A stretch of 64,000 nt of DNA, from IMG/VR virus record IMGVR_UViG_3300020576_005251, positions 1-64,000 of that record, one strand, 5' to 3'. The translations under genes were made by a program, and so were the position numbers. The notes below the pieces were generated by a model. The model worked only from the letters and a program-made list of their open reading frames with translations, did no database searches and was not told the DNA's origin. Shown piece by piece: positions 38,165 through 61,897 of this stretch; within the stretch, counting starts at the first letter, position 1; each line of letters starts with the position of its first letter. This DNA comes from a virus. Lineage: Duplodnaviria; Caudoviricetes.

Positions 38165-41100
38165 TTACCCGACCGTCAGATCCTGACTCGTCTCTCGGGT
38201 CAGGTCGAACTCTTCGTGGTTGATGAGGTTGTACTCGATATCTTCTTCGTTATAGCCATCCAAAGCCGCCTCGGGTACAGGCGGAGGGAGCGCGGCGATG
38301 TAGTCCTTGGCCTTCTGATATTCGCCGTAACTTGGGCCCAGGGCCACATCCCAGCGGTAGGGGCTCTTGAGCCAGGGGCACTCCTTCGCGACGCGCTTGG
38401 TCCCCTGCTCCAAGAACAGGTCGGGGATCTGGTGCGCGTACTTCTTCGGGACCTGGAAGCCGATCGAGTCGTGCACCGTGAGGAGCACCCGACCGCCCAT
38501 GTCCCGCTCCAAGATCTCAGCGATCCAACACAGCACCATCAGCACGATGTCCGAGTTGGTGCGCTGGATCTTGAAGTTGATGCCCTGACGCTGGAATCGA
38601 GCGAGAAGCCCCTTCGGTATCTTCGACACGTCCATCGGACAGCGACGGCGCCCACCATGGAAGGTCTCGACCAGCCCGAACTGCTGGACCTCCCACTTGG
38701 TGTGCTCCATGTACGTCGGAATGGACGGGAACTTCGAGAACAGAAGGTCTCGAATCTTCTGCGCCAGCTCCAGCGAGATGCCTGCGATCTCCGAGATCTT
38801 GGTGATCCCAGCACCGAACAGCATCCCGAACACGACGCGCTTGATGTTGTCGCGGAGTGCGTCAAGCTGGAGCGCGTAGCGAACCAGGGAGGGCGTTTCC
38901 CAGGTCTTGGGGTCGTCGAAGTTCCCGTTGCCGACGCCCTTCTTCTTGTATGTCTCCCGCGTAAAGAAGTCCTCGTACGACCACGCGTGATCGTCGTCGA
39001 TACCCGCGCGCTCCAGGGCGAGTCGGCGATCCTCCCCCTGAAGACCCGCTGCAACCAGCTGAGGATTGAGCGCCTCGCTGCCGAAGAAGCAGTGCGGATC
39101 CATCCCTCCGATCAGGGCGTTGACCAGCGCCTCGCCACCGTCGAACGCTGCGGCGTACGTACCGAAGATGGTCACCTCGGCGCCCTTCGCGTCCGCGTTG
39201 CCGAAGCACATCGAAGGGTCGTCGGGGATGATCAGCTTCTTGCAGTTGACACCGTCGAAGATCGGAACACCCTGATCGTCCAGGGCCAGACGCCCGCGCG
39301 TATCCCGAAGAGCCCCGAGAAGGCCCTTGGGTACGTTCTGCCAGTTGAAGCCGATCTTGCGAACGCCCGACGATGAGGACAGTCGGTCGGTCGCAGTGCC
39401 TGTCAGGTTGTACCCACCGTGAAGGTGGTTGTCCCCGAACATGGTCGCGAGTTGGTAGGCGTTCCCGAAGACCGAGACGCGCGCCTTCTCCGCCTTCTTG
39501 CGCGAAAGGATAAGGTTGGACAGAGGACACTTGTAGCGACTCACGAGCGCCTGGAGCACGGGGGCGCCGGTCTGGATCTGGTGCGTCGCGGTAAAGGCAA
39601 GCGGTCGGTAGGTGATTCGTCCGTTCTGATAAAGGACCGTGTCGGGGTTGGCCTTGGCGATCTCCTCCGCGTGCTCAGGGTTGGGGTGGATGTAGCCCAC
39701 GCCACCGAAGAAGAGATGGTTGGCGATCTGTCGAGGCGTCAGGTCAAAGGTCTCGCCGCACATCTCAAAGATCTGTGCCCCGGACGCGCCCACCACCATC
39801 TCAAGTTTCTCGGCGCCCCACTTGAGATAGTCGAGGTCGATATTCACGCCCTGGTCTTCGATCTTCGCGAGCTCCACTTGCCGAGGCAGCTTGAACTCGC
39901 GAAGGATCTTGATCTGAGGTGATTGATCGGGACACAGTCGCAACACCCGATACTTGGGTGTCCCGCCCATGCGCTCCTCCAGCGTGATGTCGTCCTCGGT
40001 GCGCCTGCGCGCCAGTTCCAGGGCCGTGTCCTCCTTCTCCATGCGCTCGGCCTGCACCAAGGCGAGTCGGCGCGTCACATCGCAGTCCACGGCGTTATAG
40101 AACAGGAGGTCGGGCAGCGCCGCGCCCTGATAGCCGCCCATCTGCTCAGCCTTGAGCTGCTCAGCTTTCTGGGCAGCTTTCTTGGCTTTCTGGTTGAACT
40201 CCCCACCAGCGTGAGCCTTCAGGAGGATCTGGAGGTCTTGACGATGGAGGTCTTGGAGCGTTTGGCTAGCCAGTAGCTTCTCGATCGTGCTGGGGCGGAA
40301 CTTGGCGCTGCCGATGAGCTTAGCCGCGATGGCGCGCTGGAGGGCTTCGAGCACAGCGGGCGGGAGGTTGAGCACCTCCGTGCCCTTGATCTCGACCGCG
40401 CCCTCCGTCACGCCGTTCAAGGCACCATCCTGGGATTCGAGGGTCGCTTGCAGCTGATCCTCGTAGCCCGAGAGCGCCGGGAAGAAGCGCTTCACCAAGG
40501 GCTTGAGGCCGTACTCCTCCGGCTTCGCCTCCTCGATGATGTGCTCCGCGAGCATCGTGTCCCAACCGGGTCGGCCGATCATGCGCCGTGGCAGCTTGAG
40601 GCCGTGCCACAGCGCTTTCTGGTCGTACTTGCCGTTGTGCCAGATCCACTTCTTGTCCGCCTCAAACGCGCGTTTGAGCTCCCGCTTTACGTACACGGGA
40701 TCGTACGGCGTATCGGGGTGATCCACCGCGATTGCCGTGGCCTTGCCAGTATCCCAGGAGAAGCCTACTGACAGGAGCTTGTAGCCGACCCAGTGTGGGT
40801 GAAGCGTGTTCGTCTCGGTGTCTGACGCGACCGACCAGTCTCGGGGGCTGATACCTCCTGCGCTGTAGTTCAAGACGAGGTCAATGACCTCGGTCACCTC
40901 CTTCTCATCGCGGGGGAAGATGTACCCCCGCATCAGGTCCTCGCGGCTGATGGTTGCGGGGGCAACACCTTTCGCGATCTTGACGGCGCGCTCCACGTCG
41001 GCCAGCAGCGTGTTGTACTTGCCGATGGCCGAGGCGTACGCGCTCAGGCTGCGAGTGGGAATGACGCGAAGCGGGATGCCTTCGTATGTGACCTCGAAGA

Positions 41101-41641
41101 CACGACCGAGGGCCTCCTTCTCCTTACGGACGTGGATGCCGAGCGCGTGGACCACGTCGACCCCGCACGCAAGGATGGTCAAGCCCTCGGGGTAACCGAG
41201 GGCCACTCGGCGCCGATGGATGAACTGAAGATCCCCGTCGATGTTGCTCTTGCACGCGATCGCGACGCGCTTGGGTACCTTCTCCATCGCGCAACGAACG
41301 AGGTACAGCGCCTTGTACGAGATGTTGTGGAACCCACCTTCTCGCACGATCTGCTCAAACGCTTCGATAACGACCTTCGCCCCGTCCTCCTTGAAAGGCT
41401 GGTGATGGTTCGGTACGTTGTACCTGGGCAAGCTGGTCTTCCCGAAGAACTTCCTCGGGGCTTGTGGCGCGGTCGCGAGGATGATCACATCCCCGCTATC
41501 GTCGCCCGTTCCGTACGGCGTATAGTGGGTGTCTTTGAAGGCAGGGCACCCCATGCACCCTGGGCCCGCCTTCTCAGGAAACGTGTTCTTCTGACAGACC
41601 TCGCACTCCGACACAGGGAGCGTGGGGATGGGTTGACCCAT
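38165..41641 (-). CDS. polA: Family A DNA polymerase with N-terminal degenerate UDG-like domain and 3'-5' exonuclease domain
   Basis: Exo I DTET, Exo II HNGKYD, Exo III YNAVD; TATDRLSSS, NWQNVP, motif A ADAKGAE, motif B RDNIKRVVFGMLFG and motif C TVHDS. Confidence 0.9.
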   Translation of the reverse strand: MGQPIPTLPVSECEVCQKNTFPEKAGPGCMGCPAFKDTHYTPYGTGDDSGDVIILATAPQAPRKFFGKTSLPRYNVPNHHQPFKEDGAKVVIEAFEQIVREGGFHNISYKALYLVRCAMEKVPKRVAIACKSNIDGDLQFIHRRRVALGYPEGLTILACGVDVVHALGIHVRKEKEALGRVFEVTYEGIPLRVIPTRSLSAYASAIGKYNTLLADVERAVKIAKGVAPATISREDLMRGYIFPRDEKEVTEVIDLVLNYSAGGISPRDWSVASDTETNTLHPHWVGYKLLSVGFSWDTGKATAIAVDHPDTPYDPVYVKRELKRAFEADKKWIWHNGKYDQKALWHGLKLPRRMIGRPGWDTMLAEHIIEEAKPEEYGLKPLVKRFFPALSGYEDQLQATLESQDGALNGVTEGAVEIKGTEVLNLPPAVLEALQRAIAAKLIGSAKFRPSTIEKLLASQTLQDLHRQDLQILLKAHAGGEFNQKAKKAAQKAEQLKAEQMGGYQGAALPDLLFYNAVDCDVTRRLALVQAERMEKEDTALELARRRTEDDITLEERMGGTPKYRVLRLCPDQSPQIKILREFKLPRQVELAKIEDQGVNIDLDYLKWGAEKLEMVVGASGAQIFEMCGETFDLTPRQIANHLFFGGVGYIHPNPEHAEEIAKANPDTVLYQNGRITYRPLAFTATHQIQTGAPVLQALVSRYKCPLSNLILSRKKAEKARVSVFGNAYQLATMFGDNHLHGGYNLTGTATDRLSSSSGVRKIGFNWQNVPKGLLGALRDTRGRLALDDQGVPIFDGVNCKKLIIPDDPSMCFGNADAKGAEVTIFGTYAAAFDGGEALVNALIGGMDPHCFFGSEALNPQLVAAGLQGEDRRLALERAGIDDDHAWSYEDFFTRETYKKKGVGNGNFDDPKTWETPSLVRYALQLDALRDNIKRVVFGMLFGAGITKISEIAGISLELAQKIRDLLFSKFPSIPTYMEHTKWEVQQFGLVETFHGGRRRCPMDVSKIPKGLLARFQRQGINFKIQRTNSDIVLMVLCWIAEILERDMGGRVLLTVHDSIGFQVPKKYAHQIPDLFLEQGTKRVAKECPWLKSPYRWDVALGPSYGEYQKAKDYIAALPPPVPEAALDGYNEEDIEYNLINHEEFDLTRETSQDLTVG

Positions 41642-54610: not shown

Positions 54611-57600
54611 GTGTCAGAACCCACGCCTATCTTGACCGACGCCAGCGTGATCCGTCAGCGCATGCACGAGAAGTCGATCTCGGCGATCGCGTCGACCTTC
54701 CCGCTCACGCTCCGCAACGGGACGCTGGAGGTGCAAGACCTCAAGGTCGTCACGCGGCAGTTCAGCCCGATCGACCAGTACAACGCGCTGATGCGCGAAG
54801 GCACCCTTCAGGAAGCGGTGAAGGGCACCCTCGTCCTCAAGGACAAGGAGGGCAAGGTCGTCGACACGGCGAAGAACTTCACCCTCGTACACGTGCCCCA
54901 TCTGACCGAGCGTCACACGTTGATCATGGGCGGCAACGAGTATCAAGTCGCCAACCAGCTTCGGCGCAAGCCGGGCGTGTACACGGCGCGCGCCGACAAC
55001 GGCGAGCTGCGGGCGATCTTCAACCTGGGGCGCGGCAGCAACTTCAACCTGGGCTTCACACCCGACAAGGGCACCTTCCACGTCCAGCTGGGGACCTCCA
55101 ACATCCCGCTCTACCCCGTGCTCCGCGCGGCGGGCGTCAGCCACGAGACCATCGCCCACCACCTCGGCGACGCGGTGGCCAAGGCCAACCAGACCTACCA
55201 CGGCAAGGAGGAGGAACGCGCGACCGGGAAGCTCTACGCGAAGCTGGAGCACCCCGCGCTGTTCAACGCGAACCTCCCGCACGCGGAGAAGGTGGAGGCG
55301 ATCCGCAAGAAGTGGGACGTGACCACGCTCGACCCCCACGTGACGGAGGCGACTCTCGGTACGGCGTATTCAAAAGTCACCCCCGAGGCGCTGCTGACGG
55401 CGGCACGGAAGGTGCTCGATGTCCACGGCGGTCACAAGGCCACCGATGACACCGACGCGTTGACCTACAAGACCTTCCACTCGCTGGACGACTTTCTGCA
55501 CGAACGGATCAAGCTCACCGCGCGCGCCTGGGTGCCGAAGGCGAAGCTCGCCCTCGCGACCAAGGGCACGATTCACGAGGCGTTGCGCCCTGCGCCCTTC
55601 TCGGATGGCGTGCGAAAGTTCATCACGACCGGCTCGCTGGCGGCGGTGCCGACTGCGATCAACCCGCTCGAACTGATCGATCACGCGGTGAAGGTGACGA
55701 GCCTTGGAGAGGGTGGAATCCCCTCGGATCGAGCCATTCCGCTTGACGCGCGCATGATCCACAACACGCACTTCGGAGCACTGGATCCGATCCGTACGCC
55801 TGAGTGTTTTCCGCCTGACGTCGAAGTCTGCACTCAACGGGGGTGGGCGCGTTGGGACGATGTGAGTGACTCGGACGCGTTCCTGACGATGGCGGGGGAC
55901 CTCCGCGTATTCCAGCTCCCTGAGCGTATCGTGCGTGAGCCCTACGAAGGGCTCATGTGTCACATGACAGGTGAGCATATCGACTGCGTGGTCACACCGA
56001 ACCACCGTGTATACGGGCGTGCGACCGAGCTTGCAGATGACGCCTTCGTGCAAGCGTGGGAACTTCAGGGCGCGACCCAGTGGTACTTCCCTACGGAGGA
56101 CCCGAACTTCGACTCCGTGTATGAGAGCGCACTCAGCACCTCAGTACAGCCCTATCGCGGCATGGTCTACTGCGCGACCGTCCCTGGGGGGCTCCTCTAT
56201 GTCCGCCGAAACGGTTGTACGCCGTATTGGACCGGCAACTCCAGTCACTCCGGAGTGGACATTCGCGCCACCATCGCCGCCCACCGCGACGAGGCTGGCA
56301 ACCTCTACACCGTCGCCACGAACGTGAAGACGAAGCGTGAGGAGTTCCTGCGCGCCGGAGACCTGCGGAAGTACGTGGTGGCGTTCCCCGGCGAAGAGCT
56401 CAAGGGGACGGTCGACGCCTTCAAGAACGGGCGTGTCGAGCGCGTGCCTGCGAGCACGGTGACGCACCAAATCGCTCACACCTCGCACCTCTATTCCCCT
56501 GCGACCACACTCCTGCCGCTGATCCACGGCATGCAGGGCAACCGCGCGATCATGGCGTCGAAGATGGGCACCCAGGCGTTGCCGCTCATCGAGCGGGAAG
56601 CCCCCTTCGTGCAGTCGAAGAGCCACCTGCCGGGTGAGATCAGCTTCGAGGCGATGTACGGGCACATGATCGCGCCGAGGGCGCCGGTCAGTGGGAAGGT
56701 GGTGAAGATCGAGGATGGGTGGATTCACATTCGGCCGGAGGGGGTGAAGAAGGCGACACACGCGGATGTGCGACACATCTTCGTCACGGGTCATTCGGGC
56801 TCCGGGAAGTCGACCTACGCCAAGAGTCTGTCGTCTGAAACGGGACTACCCGTTCACCGGCTCGACGACGCCCCCGGGCTGTTGGCCGCGCGCAAGTTGG
56901 GGGACACACCAACCGCAGAACGCCTGTCGCGCGAGGCGGTCGACCGTAGTTTGACGCTGTCGGTACCGCACATCATCGAAGGCACGTCCGCGTTGTTGAC
57001 GCCGGATCGTATGGCAGGGCACCGCGTTGTCTTGATGGACGCCCCGCGCGAGCACATTCTCAACGCGAGACTCCAGCGCGAAGTGGCGCAGGCGGCATCA
57101 CGCGGGGTTCCCGAGGATGTGGGGCGGCGCCAAGCACACGGAGCCGGTCTGTACGACTACTACGCACCACACGTTGATGCCGTGCGGCGTCTGTCGAACG
57201 TCGAAGTTCGAGCGCCGGGGTATGTGCCTACCGCTAAAGAGGCGGCTGAGTTCGTGGCGTATGTCGAAAAGACCGCCGAAGACCGCCCCACCGTCAAGGT
57301 TCGCTCTTTCGGCCCGTTCACGTTCCACGTCGAGATCCCCAAGGGCGCCAAGCCCTTCGGCCACCCGTTCCCCTGCGACTACGGCTACCTCCCGGGGTAC
57401 GTCGGTCCCGACGGCGACTCCCTCGACTTCTGGGTGGGGTCGGACAAAGACGGCGCGTTCGTTTCCGTCGACACCGAGGAGCAGAACGCGAAGGGTGTGT
57501 GGGTCAAGCGGGACACGAAGTACGTCGTCGGGGTGCCAAGCAATGAGGTGCATCTCGTCCTCACGCAGATCGAGCGCAAGCCCAAGACCCGGTGCGTCAA

Positions 57601-60600
57601 CCGACGCGACTACGCGTCGTGGGACGCGCTGACCAAGAGCATCGCGCACTTCAAGGACGAGGACGATCAGGTCGAGAAGACCGCCGCGACAAAGGACGAC
57701 GGACTCGTCCGCGTGCCGTACAGCCAGAACTTCCCGTTCCCTTCGAAGACCAGTCTGAACCACACGCTGAGCGTCAAGCCCGGCGACACTGTGGTAGCTG
57801 GGCAGCGCATGGGCGATTCCAACTACACGAAGGACGGCGTCCTCGCGCTCGGGCGCAACCTCCGCGTGGCGTACGTCCCCCACTACGGCCTGAACTCGAA
57901 CGACGCCGTGGTGATCAGCGAGGCGTGCGCCAAGAAGCTCACGAGCGAGCACGTGTACCGCGAGGTGTTCTCCATCCCGGTCGGCATGGAGTTCAGCAAG
58001 GAGCGGCACCAGTTCTACTACGGGACGAAGTACAGCCCTGCGCAATACGGCGTACTGGACACGCATGGCGTGGTCAAGAAGGGGGTGCGGGTCAACCCGA
58101 AGGACCTCCTGGTCTGCGGACTCGTGAAGACCCAGGTTGTCGGCACCGATGCCATCCTGGGGCGCATCTCCAAGGCGCTCGCCCGCCCCTATCAGGAGGT
58201 CGCGCTCACCTGGAACCACGGCACTCCGGGTGAGGTGATCGACGTGGTCCGTACGGGATCCCAGATCGCGGTCCTGGTGAAGACCATCGAGCAGATGCAG
58301 GTGGGGGACAAGCTCGCGGGTCGCCACGGCAACAAGGGCGTCGTGGCGAAGATCCTCCCTGATCACGAGATGCTGAAGGACGAAGCGGGCAACACGATCG
58401 ACCTCCTCCTGACGAGCGCAGGCGTGATCTCGCGCATCAACCCCTCACAGGTGTTGGAGACCGCGCTGGGCAAGGTCGTTGAGAAGACGGGCAAGCCGAT
58501 CGTCTTCGACAACAACATGCCGAGGAACCTGGAAGCCTGGACCGCTGAGCAGCTCAAGAAGCACAACATCAAGGACAAGGAGCACCTCTACGACCCGGTG
58601 TTGAAGCGTCACATCAAGGGCCCGGACGGCGCGGGCGTGTTCGTCGGGCGCCAGTTCATCTACAAGCTGTTCAAGAGCACCGACACGAACTTCTCGGGGC
58701 ACGGTGTTGGGCCGTACGATCTCAATGAACAGCCCCTGAAGACCGGGGGCGAAGAGTCCGCCAAGGGTATCGGGAAGATGGAGTTCGACGCGTTGATCGC
58801 GCACAACGCGCGCAACTTCCTGCGCGAGGCGTCCGCGATCAAGGGGCAGAAGAACGACGAGTTCTGGCGGGCGATCCAGCTGGGCCTCCCGCTCCCTGCC
58901 GCGAAGTCCCCGTTCGCCTTCAAGAAGTTCGTGGGGATGCTGGAGGGCGCGGGGCTGAAGGTGGATCAGCGTGGCTCCAAGTTCCAGCTGCTGCCGCTCA
59001 CCGACAAGGACATCCTGGCGCGATCGACCGGCGAGATCAAGAAGCCGGAGACGCTCATCGCGAAGAACCTCAAGCCCGAGGCTGGGGGTCTGTTCGACCC
59101 GAGGCTCACCGGGGGGCTTGGTGGGACGTTGTATTCGCACATCGACCTCCACGAGCCCATCCCTCACCCGGTGTTCAAGGAGCCGGTGCGGCGCCTGCTC
59201 GGGCTCACGGAGAAGGGCTTCGACGAGAAGCTCCAGACGCACGGTGGCGCGTGGTTTCACAAGGAACTGAAGGCGCTCGACACCGACCAGAAGCTCAAGG
59301 ATCTGCACGCGCGCCTGAAGACCGCGAAGGGCGCAGACCTCAACGACACCGTCAAGCAGATCAAGTACCTCGACGCACTGAACGCTCACGGCTACAAGCC
59401 GCACGACGCGTACGTCGTATCGAAGGTGCCTGTGGTGCCTCCGGTGTTTCGACCGATCATCGCTCAGCCGAACAACCCTGGGGAGCTGATGATCGCAGAC
59501 GCCAACAAGCTGTACATGCACGTGATGGATTCGAACCACACGCTGAAGAACACAGCGCTGGAGTCCGACATCGGCAAGCACCGCCGTCAGATGTTCAACG
59601 CAGTGGCGGCGCTCTACGGCACAGAGGACGTGGAGAACGACGAGCTGCGCGGACAGAGCGTGAAGGGCTTCCTGTCGAACATCGCAGGTGTCGGCACGCC
59701 CAAGGGCGGGTTCTTTCAGCGCAAGGTGATCCGCAAGACCCAGGACGTGTCGGGCCGTGGCACGGCGGTGCCCGATCCGACCTTGGGCATGGACAACGTC
59801 GGCATCCCCGAGCAGATGCTCTGGCAGATGTACGACAAGCTGATCATCGCGCGCATGGTGCGTCAGGGCCACACGGCGCTCGAAGCCAAGGAGGCCGTAC
59901 TCAAGAAGACGCCCTCGGCGAAGGCGGCGTTCATGCAGGAGATCGGCGAGCGGCCGGTGATGATCAATCGGGCGCCGACGCTCCATCGGTGGTCGATCGT
60001 GTCGGCGTACGCCGTACCCGTGCAAGGGAAGACGATTCGGGTGAACCCGTTTATCGAGAAGGGGTTGAATCTTGACTACGACGGGGATAATCAAGATTCA
60101 ACTGTAATCTTGATTCTGGCAAAGCCGCCTTTTGGCGGTTGTCATAATCGTGGTTCATACCTTGACTTCGTTACTGACAGTGCTACAGTGGTACTCCCTG
60201 GAGACCTTCGTCTCCCTCTCATGGAGGATCACATGGCCGCACGCTTCCGTACCGAAGTCCCTGCCCTCATCAACCAAGAGCTCGTCCTCTGCGATCTCGC
60301 GAACTTCCCACACGGGGAGAAGGTCAGTCAGAATGGGCACATCTCCTTCTACGCCGTGCCGGAGAATGTGTCGGTTCTCGCTCTCGACGAGGCTACCGGG
60401 CGCATCTGTGTGCAGCACCCCACGCTCTGGTCCCACCATGCTCAACGGGAGCGCGTCATCATCACGCTCGGCTCCGAACGACAGATCTTCTCCGACGACG
60501 ATCCGCGCGCTGTCTACGGCCTGGATTCGAATCTGAACTACATCAGGCGGCGCCCCTCGGAGTCCGTGGGCGTCTTCGTACCCGTCAGCTACGGCGCTAT

Positions 60601-61897
60601 CGGCGATGGGGGCGGCGCCACACTCGACACCCTCCCGGCAACCGACAAGGCGCCAGCGTTCCTCCTGACTGAAGATGCCGGGCACCTGATCGGAATGTTG
60701 ATCGGCAACGGATGGGTGGAGCCCTATCGTCTGCGTCTCGCCGGGATGAACAAGGGGATCCAGGCGCAGTTCCGCGCCGCCCTGCCCTCACTGTTCCCTG
60801 GGGTACCGATCAAGTTCGTAGTCTATGGGCACGACGCGAGCGGTGGATTCGGGGACTCAGAGGTCACGTGCGCCACCAGTGAACCCGGCACGCTGTTGTC
60901 TTCTCGGTTCCAGGGTATGTTCGGTCATGGTGCTGAGAACAAGCACCTCCCTACGTGGTTCCTGCGTACGACGTACGCATTCCGTCGGGGGCTCCTGGCT
61001 GGCCTCATCGACACAGACGGGTCTGTGTCAGTCAGCCACGGCAAGAAGAAGCCGCAGTGGATGGTGAACTATTCCAGCCGAAGTGGGCGCCTCGCGCGAG
61101 AGATCGTACTGCTGGCTCAATCGCTGGGTTTGCGCGCGAAAGTCACTCCGGCTAAGACGCCGCTGGGTGAGCCTCACTACGTCGTCAACTTCTCCACAGT
61201 CGAGCTCGGCCGCTTCGGACCGCTCCCCCTGGTTCACACTGAGAAGTCAGTGAAGTTCCGGGAGTTTCAAGCAGACCCTCCGGAAGCCAACGCTTCGTAC
61301 AACGCAACGAACCTCCTGCCGGTACCTGCTACGCTCGCGAAGCAGCTCAGCCGCCTCTTCAAGAGCGGTGGTTCGGATTATGCGAAGTGGTACCAGTCTA
61401 TCAAGAAGGGTTACGTGGCGCGCGCATTCGCGGAGGAGACTCTGACACTACATCCCACTCTGCGCGAGACGGATGACGGACTGATGCGGCGCTGGATCGA
61501 GCTCGTTGACAACAAGACGGTACGCTGGGACCAAGTCACGGAGTTTCGGGAGACCGGCATCGTCGAAGACGGCTACGATCTCACGGTCCCCGGCTATGAG
61601 ACGTTCATGAACGTCGAAGGCGTCATTCTCTCCAACACCCTCCAAGTCCACGCCCCCGTCACCCACGACGCCATCGCCGACGCGAAGAAGATGACCCTGT
61701 CCAACATGCTGCTCGCGGACAACACGCGGAACAAGATCCTCGCGTTCCCGCAGCACGAAGCGATCATCGGCTTCACCCATGGCTCGAAGCTAGCCCCCTC
61801 GAACAAGCCCGTGCGCCACTTCAAGTCGATGGAGGAGGCCATCGCGGCTTACAAACGCGGAGAGCTCGCTGCGAACGACCCGATCGAGGTATCCTAG
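54611..61897 (+). CDS. rpoBC: Multisubunit RNA polymerase beta + N-terminal beta' fusion, with two inteins and inserted kinase and pyrophosphatase domains
   Basis: Beta motifs: QLRRKPGVY, DPIRTPE, NRAIMASKMGTQA, LALGRN, GDKLAGRHGNKG, GKMEFDAL. Beta' motifs: GEIKKPET, GLFD, PVVPPVFRP, NRAPTLHR and catalytic NLDYDGD. Confidence 0.95.
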   Translation: MSEPTPILTDASVIRQRMHEKSISAIASTFPLTLRNGTLEVQDLKVVTRQFSPIDQYNALMREGTLQEAVKGTLVLKDKEGKVVDTAKNFTLVHVPHLTERHTLIMGGNEYQVANQLRRKPGVYTARADNGELRAIFNLGRGSNFNLGFTPDKGTFHVQLGTSNIPLYPVLRAAGVSHETIAHHLGDAVAKANQTYHGKEEERATGKLYAKLEHPALFNANLPHAEKVEAIRKKWDVTTLDPHVTEATLGTAYSKVTPEALLTAARKVLDVHGGHKATDDTDALTYKTFHSLDDFLHERIKLTARAWVPKAKLALATKGTIHEALRPAPFSDGVRKFITTGSLAAVPTAINPLELIDHAVKVTSLGEGGIPSDRAIPLDARMIHNTHFGALDPIRTPECFPPDVEVCTQRGWARWDDVSDSDAFLTMAGDLRVFQLPERIVREPYEGLMCHMTGEHIDCVVTPNHRVYGRATELADDAFVQAWELQGATQWYFPTEDPNFDSVYESALSTSVQPYRGMVYCATVPGGLLYVRRNGCTPYWTGNSSHSGVDIRATIAAHRDEAGNLYTVATNVKTKREEFLRAGDLRKYVVAFPGEELKGTVDAFKNGRVERVPASTVTHQIAHTSHLYSPATTLLPLIHGMQGNRAIMASKMGTQALPLIEREAPFVQSKSHLPGEISFEAMYGHMIAPRAPVSGKVVKIEDGWIHIRPEGVKKATHADVRHIFVTGHSGSGKSTYAKSLSSETGLPVHRLDDAPGLLAARKLGDTPTAERLSREAVDRSLTLSVPHIIEGTSALLTPDRMAGHRVVLMDAPREHILNARLQREVAQAASRGVPEDVGRRQAHGAGLYDYYAPHVDAVRRLSNVEVRAPGYVPTAKEAAEFVAYVEKTAEDRPTVKVRSFGPFTFHVEIPKGAKPFGHPFPCDYGYLPGYVGPDGDSLDFWVGSDKDGAFVSVDTEEQNAKGVWVKRDTKYVVGVPSNEVHLVLTQIERKPKTRCVNRRDYASWDALTKSIAHFKDEDDQVEKTAATKDDGLVRVPYSQNFPFPSKTSLNHTLSVKPGDTVVAGQRMGDSNYTKDGVLALGRNLRVAYVPHYGLNSNDAVVISEACAKKLTSEHVYREVFSIPVGMEFSKERHQFYYGTKYSPAQYGVLDTHGVVKKGVRVNPKDLLVCGLVKTQVVGTDAILGRISKALARPYQEVALTWNHGTPGEVIDVVRTGSQIAVLVKTIEQMQVGDKLAGRHGNKGVVAKILPDHEMLKDEAGNTIDLLLTSAGVISRINPSQVLETALGKVVEKTGKPIVFDNNMPRNLEAWTAEQLKKHNIKDKEHLYDPVLKRHIKGPDGAGVFVGRQFIYKLFKSTDTNFSGHGVGPYDLNEQPLKTGGEESAKGIGKMEFDALIAHNARNFLREASAIKGQKNDEFWRAIQLGLPLPAAKSPFAFKKFVGMLEGAGLKVDQRGSKFQLLPLTDKDILARSTGEIKKPETLIAKNLKPEAGGLFDPRLTGGLGGTLYSHIDLHEPIPHPVFKEPVRRLLGLTEKGFDEKLQTHGGAWFHKELKALDTDQKLKDLHARLKTAKGADLNDTVKQIKYLDALNAHGYKPHDAYVVSKVPVVPPVFRPIIAQPNNPGELMIADANKLYMHVMDSNHTLKNTALESDIGKHRRQMFNAVAALYGTEDVENDELRGQSVKGFLSNIAGVGTPKGGFFQRKVIRKTQDVSGRGTAVPDPTLGMDNVGIPEQMLWQMYDKLIIARMVRQGHTALEAKEAVLKKTPSAKAAFMQEIGERPVMINRAPTLHRWSIVSAYAVPVQGKTIRVNPFIEKGLNLDYDGDNQDSTVILILAKPPFGGCHNRGSYLDFVTDSATVVLPGDLRLPLMEDHMAARFRTEVPALINQELVLCDLANFPHGEKVSQNGHISFYAVPENVSVLALDEATGRICVQHPTLWSHHAQRERVIITLGSERQIFSDDDPRAVYGLDSNLNYIRRRPSESVGVFVPVSYGAIGDGGGATLDTLPATDKAPAFLLTEDAGHLIGMLIGNGWVEPYRLRLAGMNKGIQAQFRAALPSLFPGVPIKFVVYGHDASGGFGDSEVTCATSEPGTLLSSRFQGMFGHGAENKHLPTWFLRTTYAFRRGLLAGLIDTDGSVSVSHGKKKPQWMVNYSSRSGRLAREIVLLAQSLGLRAKVTPAKTPLGEPHYVVNFSTVELGRFGPLPLVHTEKSVKFREFQADPPEANASYNATNLLPVPATLAKQLSRLFKSGGSDYAKWYQSIKKGYVARAFAEETLTLHPTLRETDDGLMRRWIELVDNKTVRWDQVTEFRETGIVEDGYDLTVPGYETFMNVEGVILSNTLQVHAPVTHDAIADAKKMTLSNMLLADNTRNKILAFPQHEAIIGFTHGSKLAPSNKPVRHFKSMEEAIAAYKRGELAANDPIEVS
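55805..56239 (+). mobile_element. Mini-intein (145 aa, no endonuclease) in RNAP beta after TPE
   Basis: Starts CFPPDVEV; block B VTPNH; block F VYCATV; ends WTGN followed by Ser. Confidence 0.9.
56770..57225 (+). other. P-loop nucleotide-kinase-like domain inserted in RNAP beta
   Basis: HIFVTGHSGSGKST (Walker A at 56789-56815), IIEG, and VLMDAP...NARLQR lid-like segment. Confidence 0.75.
57290..57660 (+). other. Inorganic pyrophosphatase-like domain inserted in RNAP beta
   Basis: VEIPKG, PCDYGYLPG, DGDSLD and D-x-K match family I PPase signatures. Confidence 0.75.
60089..61636 (+). mobile_element. Non-canonical intein (516 aa) with LAGLIDADG homing endonuclease, directly after the catalytic DYDGD
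   Basis: HLIGMLIGNG and LLAGLIDTDG; block F GYDLTV; ends ILSN followed by Thr. Removing it restores NLDYDGD-TLQVHAP (compare NADFDGDQMAVHVP). Confidence 0.85.
60162..60235 (+). promoter_or_regulatory. Internal sigma70-like promoter, RBS and in-frame ATG inside intein 2
   Basis: TTGACT 60162-67, 16-nt spacer ending TGC, TACAGT 60184-89, GGAGGA 60223-28 and ATG 60233. Confidence 0.55.

Follow-up and report, generated by a model that had tools for sequence, protein, structure and literature searches.

An intein-like element family without a residue-1 nucleophile at the catalytic loop of phage RNA polymerases

Results

We analysed the first 64 kb (64,000 nucleotides, hereafter the window) of a 172,885-bp uncultured phage record, IMGVR_UViG_3300020576_005251, in which an RNA polymerase (RNAP) gene is interrupted at its catalytic loop by a 516-residue intein-like insert. 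The host gene (54611..61897, + strand) encodes 2428 residues and was identified from the list of open reading frames (ORFs) and from Pfam matches to Rpb2_6 (E-value 5.9e-39), Rpb2_3, Rpb1_1 and Rpb1_2 (2.1e-14). It is a fused polymerase, in which the beta subunit continues straight into the N-terminal part of beta' in one chain. The final N-extein residues are the catalytic DYDGD (60074..60088, +), part of a D-x-D-G-D motif that is invariant in 117 relatives. In the translation, the insert (N1827-N2342; 60089..61636, +) starts with an Asn right behind DYDGD and ends with Ser-Asn, after which the host sequence resumes with a Thr, residue one of the C-extein (Thr+1; 61637..61639, +).

A first-pass annotation of the window had described the Asn at residue 1 and had claimed that exact excision of N1827-N2342 restores the conserved host spacing. 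Both points hold. The Asn recurs in a copy of the insert on a second contig (L002/L021), and in 13 intein-free relatives (L005, L006, L008-L017, L019, L020) DGD is followed directly by T/A-x-x-V/I-H. Because these relatives read through the junction without a gap, the boundaries of the insert are exact. As is expected of an intein, the insert is in frame at a conserved host site, and its precise removal restores the host sequence. It is missing from relatives whose flanking N-extein is 66-77% identical, and without a counterpart in such close relatives it must therefore be a dispensable, mobile element. A blastn search against a phage collection (named phages) gave no match.

What kind of element is it? 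An AlphaFold2 model of the insert, built on 40 family members, has a predicted local distance difference test score (pLDDT) of 81 and a predicted template modelling score (pTM) of 0.82. The top Foldseek matches of this model are endonuclease-bearing inteins, namely TliVMA (9e-21), PI-PfuI and PI-PkoII, with PI-SceI also among the matches, and the insert profile matches PI-PkoII, PI-PfuI and the DnaB intein. Model, structural matches and profile all indicate a Hint fold with a nested homing endonuclease, as in inteins generally. The endonuclease core (60680..61021, +) is recognised by Pfam LAGLIDADG_3 (E = 3.7e-8) and Hom_end and structurally matches I-DmoI and PI-SceI, and both of its LAGLIDADG motifs (motif 1, 60680-60715; motif 2, 60989-61021) are conserved in the family. 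The insert is, by these predictions, a Hint and LAGLIDADG mobile element at the Mg-binding catalytic loop of a phage RNAP. Its score against the Pfam family Intein_splicing is 19 bits, below the cut-off of 35.8, which may be the reason why the family has gone without annotation.

The insert has many homologues. We found the same insert in 251 fused polymerases by a word-indexed search and in 632 cluster representatives at E<=1e-30 by an exhaustive profile search; the top 150 of the 632 match over the full profile length. The first-pass annotation had suggested looking for homologues that combine a DDPRA-type motif with a non-nucleophilic residue 1, and the search indeed uncovered a large conserved family of this kind. 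We took the family signature from an alignment of 117 members and re-counted it on 233 members.

Members of this family rarely carry a nucleophile at residue 1. Among 196 members the residue is Gln (75), Glu (28), Ala (24), Asp (18), Leu (12), Asn (7), Cys (7), Ser (6) or another, with Cys or Ser in only 13. These 13 occupy at least 8 separate tips of a FastTree phylogeny of 181 inserts, and because they are scattered over the tree, residue 1 drifts, with no selection for a nucleophile. Residue 2 is Gln in 120/196 members, the window among them. The Cys, Ser or Thr that class 1 inteins have at residue 1 is Asn in the window.

Which residues are conserved instead? The alignments to the family and to PI-PkoII place an NX-type motif, W114-S115-H116-H117, at 60428..60439 (+). 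The NX motif is a conserved His ~20-40 residues upstream of block B, mostly after Lys/Arg (PMC10189870), and His117 matches this description; the residue before it, a His in the window, is Lys/Arg in ~40% of the family. His117 is present in 117/117 members and the pattern [WYF][ST]xH in 230/233. By profile alignment, its counterpart in the Ser1 intein PI-PkoII is the R-H. Position 115 holds Ser or Thr in 117/117 members.

The best-conserved stretch of the family is a block-B analogue, [T/S]135-D-D-D-[P/E]-R-A-V-Y-G, which in the window reads S135-D-D-D-P-R-A-V-Y-G144 (60491..60520, +). In the PI-PkoII alignment the block-B Thr corresponds to S135 and the catalytic block-B His to Asp138. Of the Thr-x-x-His that class 1 inteins have in block B, the Thr/Ser is kept and the His has become an invariant Asp138. 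The first-pass annotation was right that the block-B His is missing: the window has S-D-D-D, and the family always has Asp at the His position.

Blocks F and G (61565..61636, +) are nearly invariant in the family and match block F of the Ssp DnaB intein. They contain Asp497 at block F position 4 (F:4; Asp in 217/217 members), Glu504 at the usual block-F His position and the Ser515-Asn516 end. The terminal Leu-Ser-Asn and the Thr that follows it are near-invariant, with Ser-Asn followed by Thr at 211/213 readable junctions, and the window has the C-terminal Asn before Cys, Ser or Thr that marks inteins. The earlier description of intact LAGLIDADG motifs, block F and C-terminal SN before T thus agrees with Pfam and the family alignment. 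All three of the usual histidines are replaced, at block B position 10 by Asp, in block F by Glu and at the penultimate position by Ser. The Trp-Cys-Thr (WCT) triplet of class 3 is also absent, with Arg140, Asp497 and Leu514 at B:12, F:4 and G:5. Altogether, the residues that are invariant or nearly so are H117, D136, D138, R140, Arg153, Pro156, D497, Glu504, S515, N516 and T+1.

The +1 residue of interrupted alleles is Thr in 116/117 cases and Ser in 1/117 (re-count, Thr 212/213 and Ser 1/213). Within the same polymerase clade, alleles without the intein show Thr in ~21 cases (about 60%), Ala in 8 and Gln in 6. Since Thr is fixed in the former and reaches only ~60% in the latter, the element appears to need Thr+1.

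Could the unusual first residue have a mundane cause? The first-pass annotation had itself named three: a sequencing error that hides a Cys/Ser1, removal of the segment at the RNA level and a decayed allele. The data contradict each of them. The copy of the insert on L002/L021 is 89% identical and has identical first residues, and because this contig is independent, sequencing error is excluded. In the pairwise comparison of the window with this relative, dN/dS is 0.10 over the insert (dS 0.61) and 0.04 over the flanking N-extein. Key residues are, moreover, invariant across hundreds of clusters, which speaks against decay. An Rfam scan at E<=10 gave chance-level matches only, with no intron match, and the reading frame and protein motifs are preserved through the insert in all fused alleles; we therefore rejected RNA-level removal. 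Judged by its substitution pattern, the insert is under purifying selection and is neither an artefact nor a decayed copy.

We also rejected the idea that a small insertion or a translational-bypass gap in the low-GC hairpin stretch 60089-60140 hides the true residue 1 (Cys18 or Ser23). Residues 1-10 fit the first-strand motif of the family, and relatives with shorter linkers are equally free of a nucleophile. The alternative frames near the junction, checked by eye, hold stop codons and no block A.

The N-terminal part of the insert is unusual in its DNA as well as in its protein. Residues 1-12 (60089..60124, +), beginning Asn1 Gln2, fit the family motif x-Q-h-x-S/T-V-h-h and are modelled as a docked, IntN-like first Hint beta-strand (pLDDT ~80). 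Residues 13-61 are disordered in the model (pLDDT <50) and the remainder is confident; in the 117-member alignment the disordered stretch is conserved neither in sequence nor in length. Most of it is a variable, AT-richer linker formed by residues 13-48 (60125..60232, +), with a GC content of 0.47 vs 0.61 in the rest of the insert, and the linker GC is lower than that of the rest of the insert in 37/40 loci. Across its 36 codons the window and L021 show zero synonymous change (dS 0.000, vs 0.5-0.8 elsewhere), and on this comparison the window linker is constrained at the nucleotide level. Its RNA fold has a z-score of -3.4. RNA folding places two hairpins at 60089-60115 and 60124-60139 (60089..60139, +), within which the differences between the window and L021 are confined to the loops.

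The linker also contains signals for expression. A sigma-70-like promoter with a -35 element, a 16-nt spacer and an extended -10 element (60162..60189, +) is the sole match in 1.1 kb, vs 0.1 in shuffles. Sites of this type occur in 15/40 family linkers, vs 0.54 per kb elsewhere, and some are perfect consensus. Further along, a Shine-Dalgarno (SD)-like GGAGGA (60223-60228), a 4-nt spacer and the ATG of M49 (60233-60235) make up a putative internal translation start (60223..60235, +). All 40 DNA loci have a start codon at the end of the linker (ATG in 36, GTG in 4), and in 27/40 an SD core of >=5 nt lies 4-12 nt upstream, vs 4.1% at other in-frame ATG/GTG codons. Because the SD core occurs in different codon phases, it is conserved as nucleotides and not as amino acids. 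The linker DNA is thus a predicted small expression cassette, often with a promoter and always with a ribosome-binding region and an ATG or GTG. Folding further shows four small linker hairpins (60089-60139 and 60200-60232, +), one of which pairs GGAGG with an upstream CCUCU and may regulate the internal start.

In several phages (L030, L055/L046, L082, L248, L249, L250) the linker carries a stop codon and the polymerase gene is split. The upstream gene then ends in DGD and a tail of 21-49 residues that retains the first-strand motif, and the downstream gene begins at the homologous Met, often in another frame. At least 22 stand-alone proteins of the downstream type are present in databases. 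The split alleles are predicted to be built like an atypically split intein whose N-fragment is short; in the window the halves are fused in frame, with the internal SD and ATG retained. Polymerases of this phage clade are already fragmented into several genes at several places.

Three more distant endonuclease-bearing inteins occupy the same site, between DxDGD and T (L018:4796-6283, L024:1528-3150 and L027:955-2607). That of L024 has Cys1, a block-B His and an Asp end, and has an SD and ATG in its linker too; those of L018 and L027 start with Ser1 and end with Asp. The three group together on the tree (FastTree, support 98). Because these same-site relatives keep Cys1 or Ser1, the nucleophile-less family traces back to ordinary splicing inteins and has lost its residue-1 nucleophile. 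The site may be occupied elsewhere, too. In the phage polymerase of L156, the residues after NADFDGD, S-I-L-G-E-V-L-V, may belong to a Ser1 intein. Many giant-virus RPB1 genes (L145, L147, L167, L189, L198, L231, L235 and others) have frame breaks 1-2 codons past NADFDGD; the region of the break is stop-rich, with a recurring translated pattern, and looks like introns at the site of the phage intein.

Discussion

How could an element without a residue-1 nucleophile leave its host protein? We lean slightly towards a functional, cysteine-free, homing-endonuclease-bearing intein that splices with Thr+1 as the first nucleophile, in a class-2-like reaction on oxygen. The target of the family would be a single bond, the one behind the final Asp of the catalytic DxDGD in multisubunit RNAPs from a clade of large phages. 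Since the family has no residue-1 nucleophile, its removal cannot open with the usual acyl shift. Instead, the hydroxyl of Thr+1 would directly attack the Asp(-1)-Asn1 peptide bond, with Asp497 (F:4) positioning Thr+1 and with assistance from the NX residue His117 and the Asp136-138/Arg140 cluster. Asn516 would then cyclise, an O-to-N shift would re-form DYDGD-T, and the released intein would serve as a homing endonuclease.

Several observations favour splicing by Thr+1. The block-B analogue is the best-conserved motif; in known inteins block B is found at the N-junction, so its conservation speaks for chemistry there. Together with the fixation of Thr+1, it points to chemistry at both junctions. 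The absence of the block-B His is less strange than it seems, because an NX His can free an intein from the need for a block-B His: for the intein PolB16 OarG, an NX-motif His is essential and its block-B His is not (Pasch et al. 2023, PMC10189870). Moreover, the split alleles retain strand 1 as a tail, as split inteins do, and the same polymerase also holds an ordinary Cys1 mini-intein.

However, other considerations weigh against splicing by Thr+1. We know of no studied precedent for a Thr hydroxyl that directly attacks an unactivated amide when the block-B His is missing. The conserved internal start gives a product that lacks strand 1 and is unable to splice in cis. Fixation of Thr+1 could come in part from the target preference of the endonuclease or from co-conversion. 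Finally, the polymerases of the clade are already in pieces and might therefore put up with an active-site nick and have no need of ligation. The first-pass annotation had proposed a non-standard splicing route, either direct attack by Thr+1 or cleavage only. The anomaly proves to be family-wide, which supports a route of this non-standard kind, by one or the other. That first reading was also incomplete, in that it lacked the NX residue His117, the class-2-like definition, the internal promoter, ribosome-binding site and start, and the natural split alleles.

Processing without ligation is one alternative, which we consider unlikely but worth serious attention. Cyclisation of Asn516 would free the C-terminal polymerase piece, the N-junction would either stay uncut or undergo hydrolysis, for which the acidic D136-138/E504 cluster may be responsible, and the working enzyme would be nicked at its catalytic loop. 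Such a scheme fits the absence of a residue-1 nucleophile and the replacement of all three histidines that usually assist splicing. It also fits a clade that tolerates split polymerase genes, the frequency of split alleles of the element and an internal start that yields a C-piece needing C-terminal cleavage alone. Yet C-terminal cleavage alone does not need Thr, and Thr+1 is invariant in interrupted but not in intein-free alleles; the most conserved part of the element is the block-B analogue, an N-junction motif; and an uncut N-junction would leave the third catalytic Asp, in the active centre, with an appendage of 21-516 residues. Might a residue within the insert take over the role of residue 1? 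There is a precedent in class 3 inteins, where an internal residue does so (PMC2807308), and here a conserved Ser/Thr, for example Ser115 or Ser515, would take the N-extein and pass it to Thr+1. Ser115 would be a candidate, being Ser or Thr throughout the alignment and two residues from the invariant His117. We nevertheless find an internal oxygen nucleophile improbable, since the class-3 position F:4 is Asp in every member counted, and ordinary Ser1 inteins have a structural strand where W-S-x-H aligns, with the NX His already explained there.

It is very improbable that the insert is dead or domesticated and stays in the polymerase, is removed at the RNA level or is a sequencing artefact. 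The low Pfam intein score and the stable linker hairpins could be taken to favour such explanations. Against them stand the dN/dS of 0.10 and the invariance of catalytic-type residues across hundreds of clusters, the dispensability and mobility implied by the absence of the insert from close relatives, the lack of an Rfam intron match, the frame and motifs preserved in all fused alleles and the identical first residues in an independent contig.

Where does splicing by Thr+1 leave the element among known inteins? The first-pass annotation had held that it fits no intein class. It is indeed neither class 1 nor class 3 and is unlike the KlbA prototype of class 2, but under the class definitions of Tori et al. 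2010 (PMC2807308), by which a class 2 sequence has no N-terminal nucleophile and no WCT, it is class-2-like. The insert shares both of these features, and Asp at F:4, with the class 2 intein Mja KlbA (PMC2807308), and in both the +1 residue is proposed to attack the peptide bond of the N-junction as the first step. The class 2 combination of Cys+1 as first nucleophile with a block-B Thr and His that activate the N-junction is, however, not found. KlbA inteins have Ala1, Cys+1 and the block-B Thr and His, whereas our family has Thr+1, Asp for the block-B His and Ser for the penultimate His; and KlbA inteins are archaeal mini-inteins in a single host protein, unlike this phage RNAP family. Like class 3 inteins (mycobacteriophage Bethlehem DnaB and the split AceL NrdHF, PMC7891396), for which one natural split example is known, the family has a non-nucleophilic residue 1, has Thr or Ser at +1 and is phage-associated. 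Unlike class 3, it has Arg140, Asp497 and Leu514 in place of the Trp, Cys and Thr.

The PolB16 OarG intein offers another comparison. Like it and the cysteine-less inteins with Ser1 and Ser(Thr)+1 (PMC10189870), the family is cysteine-free with an oxygen nucleophile at +1, and like PolB16 it has, upstream of block B, a His of the NX type. PolB16 can dispense with its block-B His, and here that residue is absent altogether. Both are split just past the first strand, with an N-fragment of 15 aa in PolB16 and 21-49 aa in the split alleles of the family, and both the PolB16 group and the nucleophile-less family come from phage or metagenome sequences. Unlike PolB16, which keeps Ser1 and the penultimate His, the family can have any residue at position 1 (Asn in the window) and has a penultimate Ser; it has a LAGLIDADG endonuclease within its C-fragment, and most of its alleles are fused in frame.

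The internal start also invites comparison with free-standing homing endonucleases. In phage Aeh1, a free-standing homing-endonuclease gene with its own promoter, mobE, reportedly leaves the nrdA gene in pieces, and cases of this type are not known to have a Hint domain or repair at the protein level. The element resembles nrdA/mobE in being an endonuclease unit that lies within an essential phage gene, sometimes splits it, and brings its own promoter, ribosome-binding site and start. It differs in that its endonuclease is nested in an intein fold, itself fused to the two halves of the host.

On its sequence features, the insert is an intein that departs from all studied classes in its catalytic set and gene architecture. 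Does it also splice by a mechanism of its own? It is quite possible, though we would stop short of calling it probable, that true protein splicing, in cis and, for split alleles, in trans, proceeds here outside the three studied classes and represents a fourth mechanistic class. The family lacks a residue-1 nucleophile, a block-F Cys, a Cys+1 and all three catalytic histidines. Either Thr+1 would attack directly, or the always-present extein Asp(-1) would be activated as a cyclic anhydride, with the acidic Asp/Glu cluster and the NX His as the catalysts.

Literature searches turned up no intein with this signature or inserted at this RNAP position, and the word intein is absent from the paper that defines this phage RNAP clade (PMC7481178). 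This large, conserved family of nucleophile-less inteins is thus apparently undescribed. If its members splice, they would extend the chemistry of protein splicing through hundreds of variants that do without Cys, a residue-1 nucleophile or the canonical histidines, at a junction that an extein Asp fixes. A fourth class, if real, would be widespread in phage RNAPs and would come with ready natural split pairs. The split alleles, with their short N-fragments, would be candidate ligation tools with no requirement for an N-side nucleophile. If the elements only cleave, an essential polymerase would work with a nicked catalytic loop. Either way, maturation of the phage's own transcription enzyme would hinge on the element. 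Moreover, the internal promoter and start suggest that one object can be both intein and free-standing endonuclease gene, which bears on the origin of split inteins.

Other features of the window

The beta part of the same polymerase gene holds further in-frame segments. An ordinary mini-intein of 145 aa (55805-56239, +), inserted after I-R-T-P-E, has Cys1, a block-B T-P-N-H, Cys at block F position 4 and a Gly-Asn end followed by Ser. At ~56774-57700 (+) lies a P-loop kinase-like segment together with a pyrophosphatase-like motif; its Pfam matches, AAA_18 and AAA_33, are both under their cut-offs. Outside the polymerase gene, a 1158-aa ORF for a family-A DNA polymerase (38165-41641, -) has its Pfam polymerase match in two stretches and may also carry an insert.

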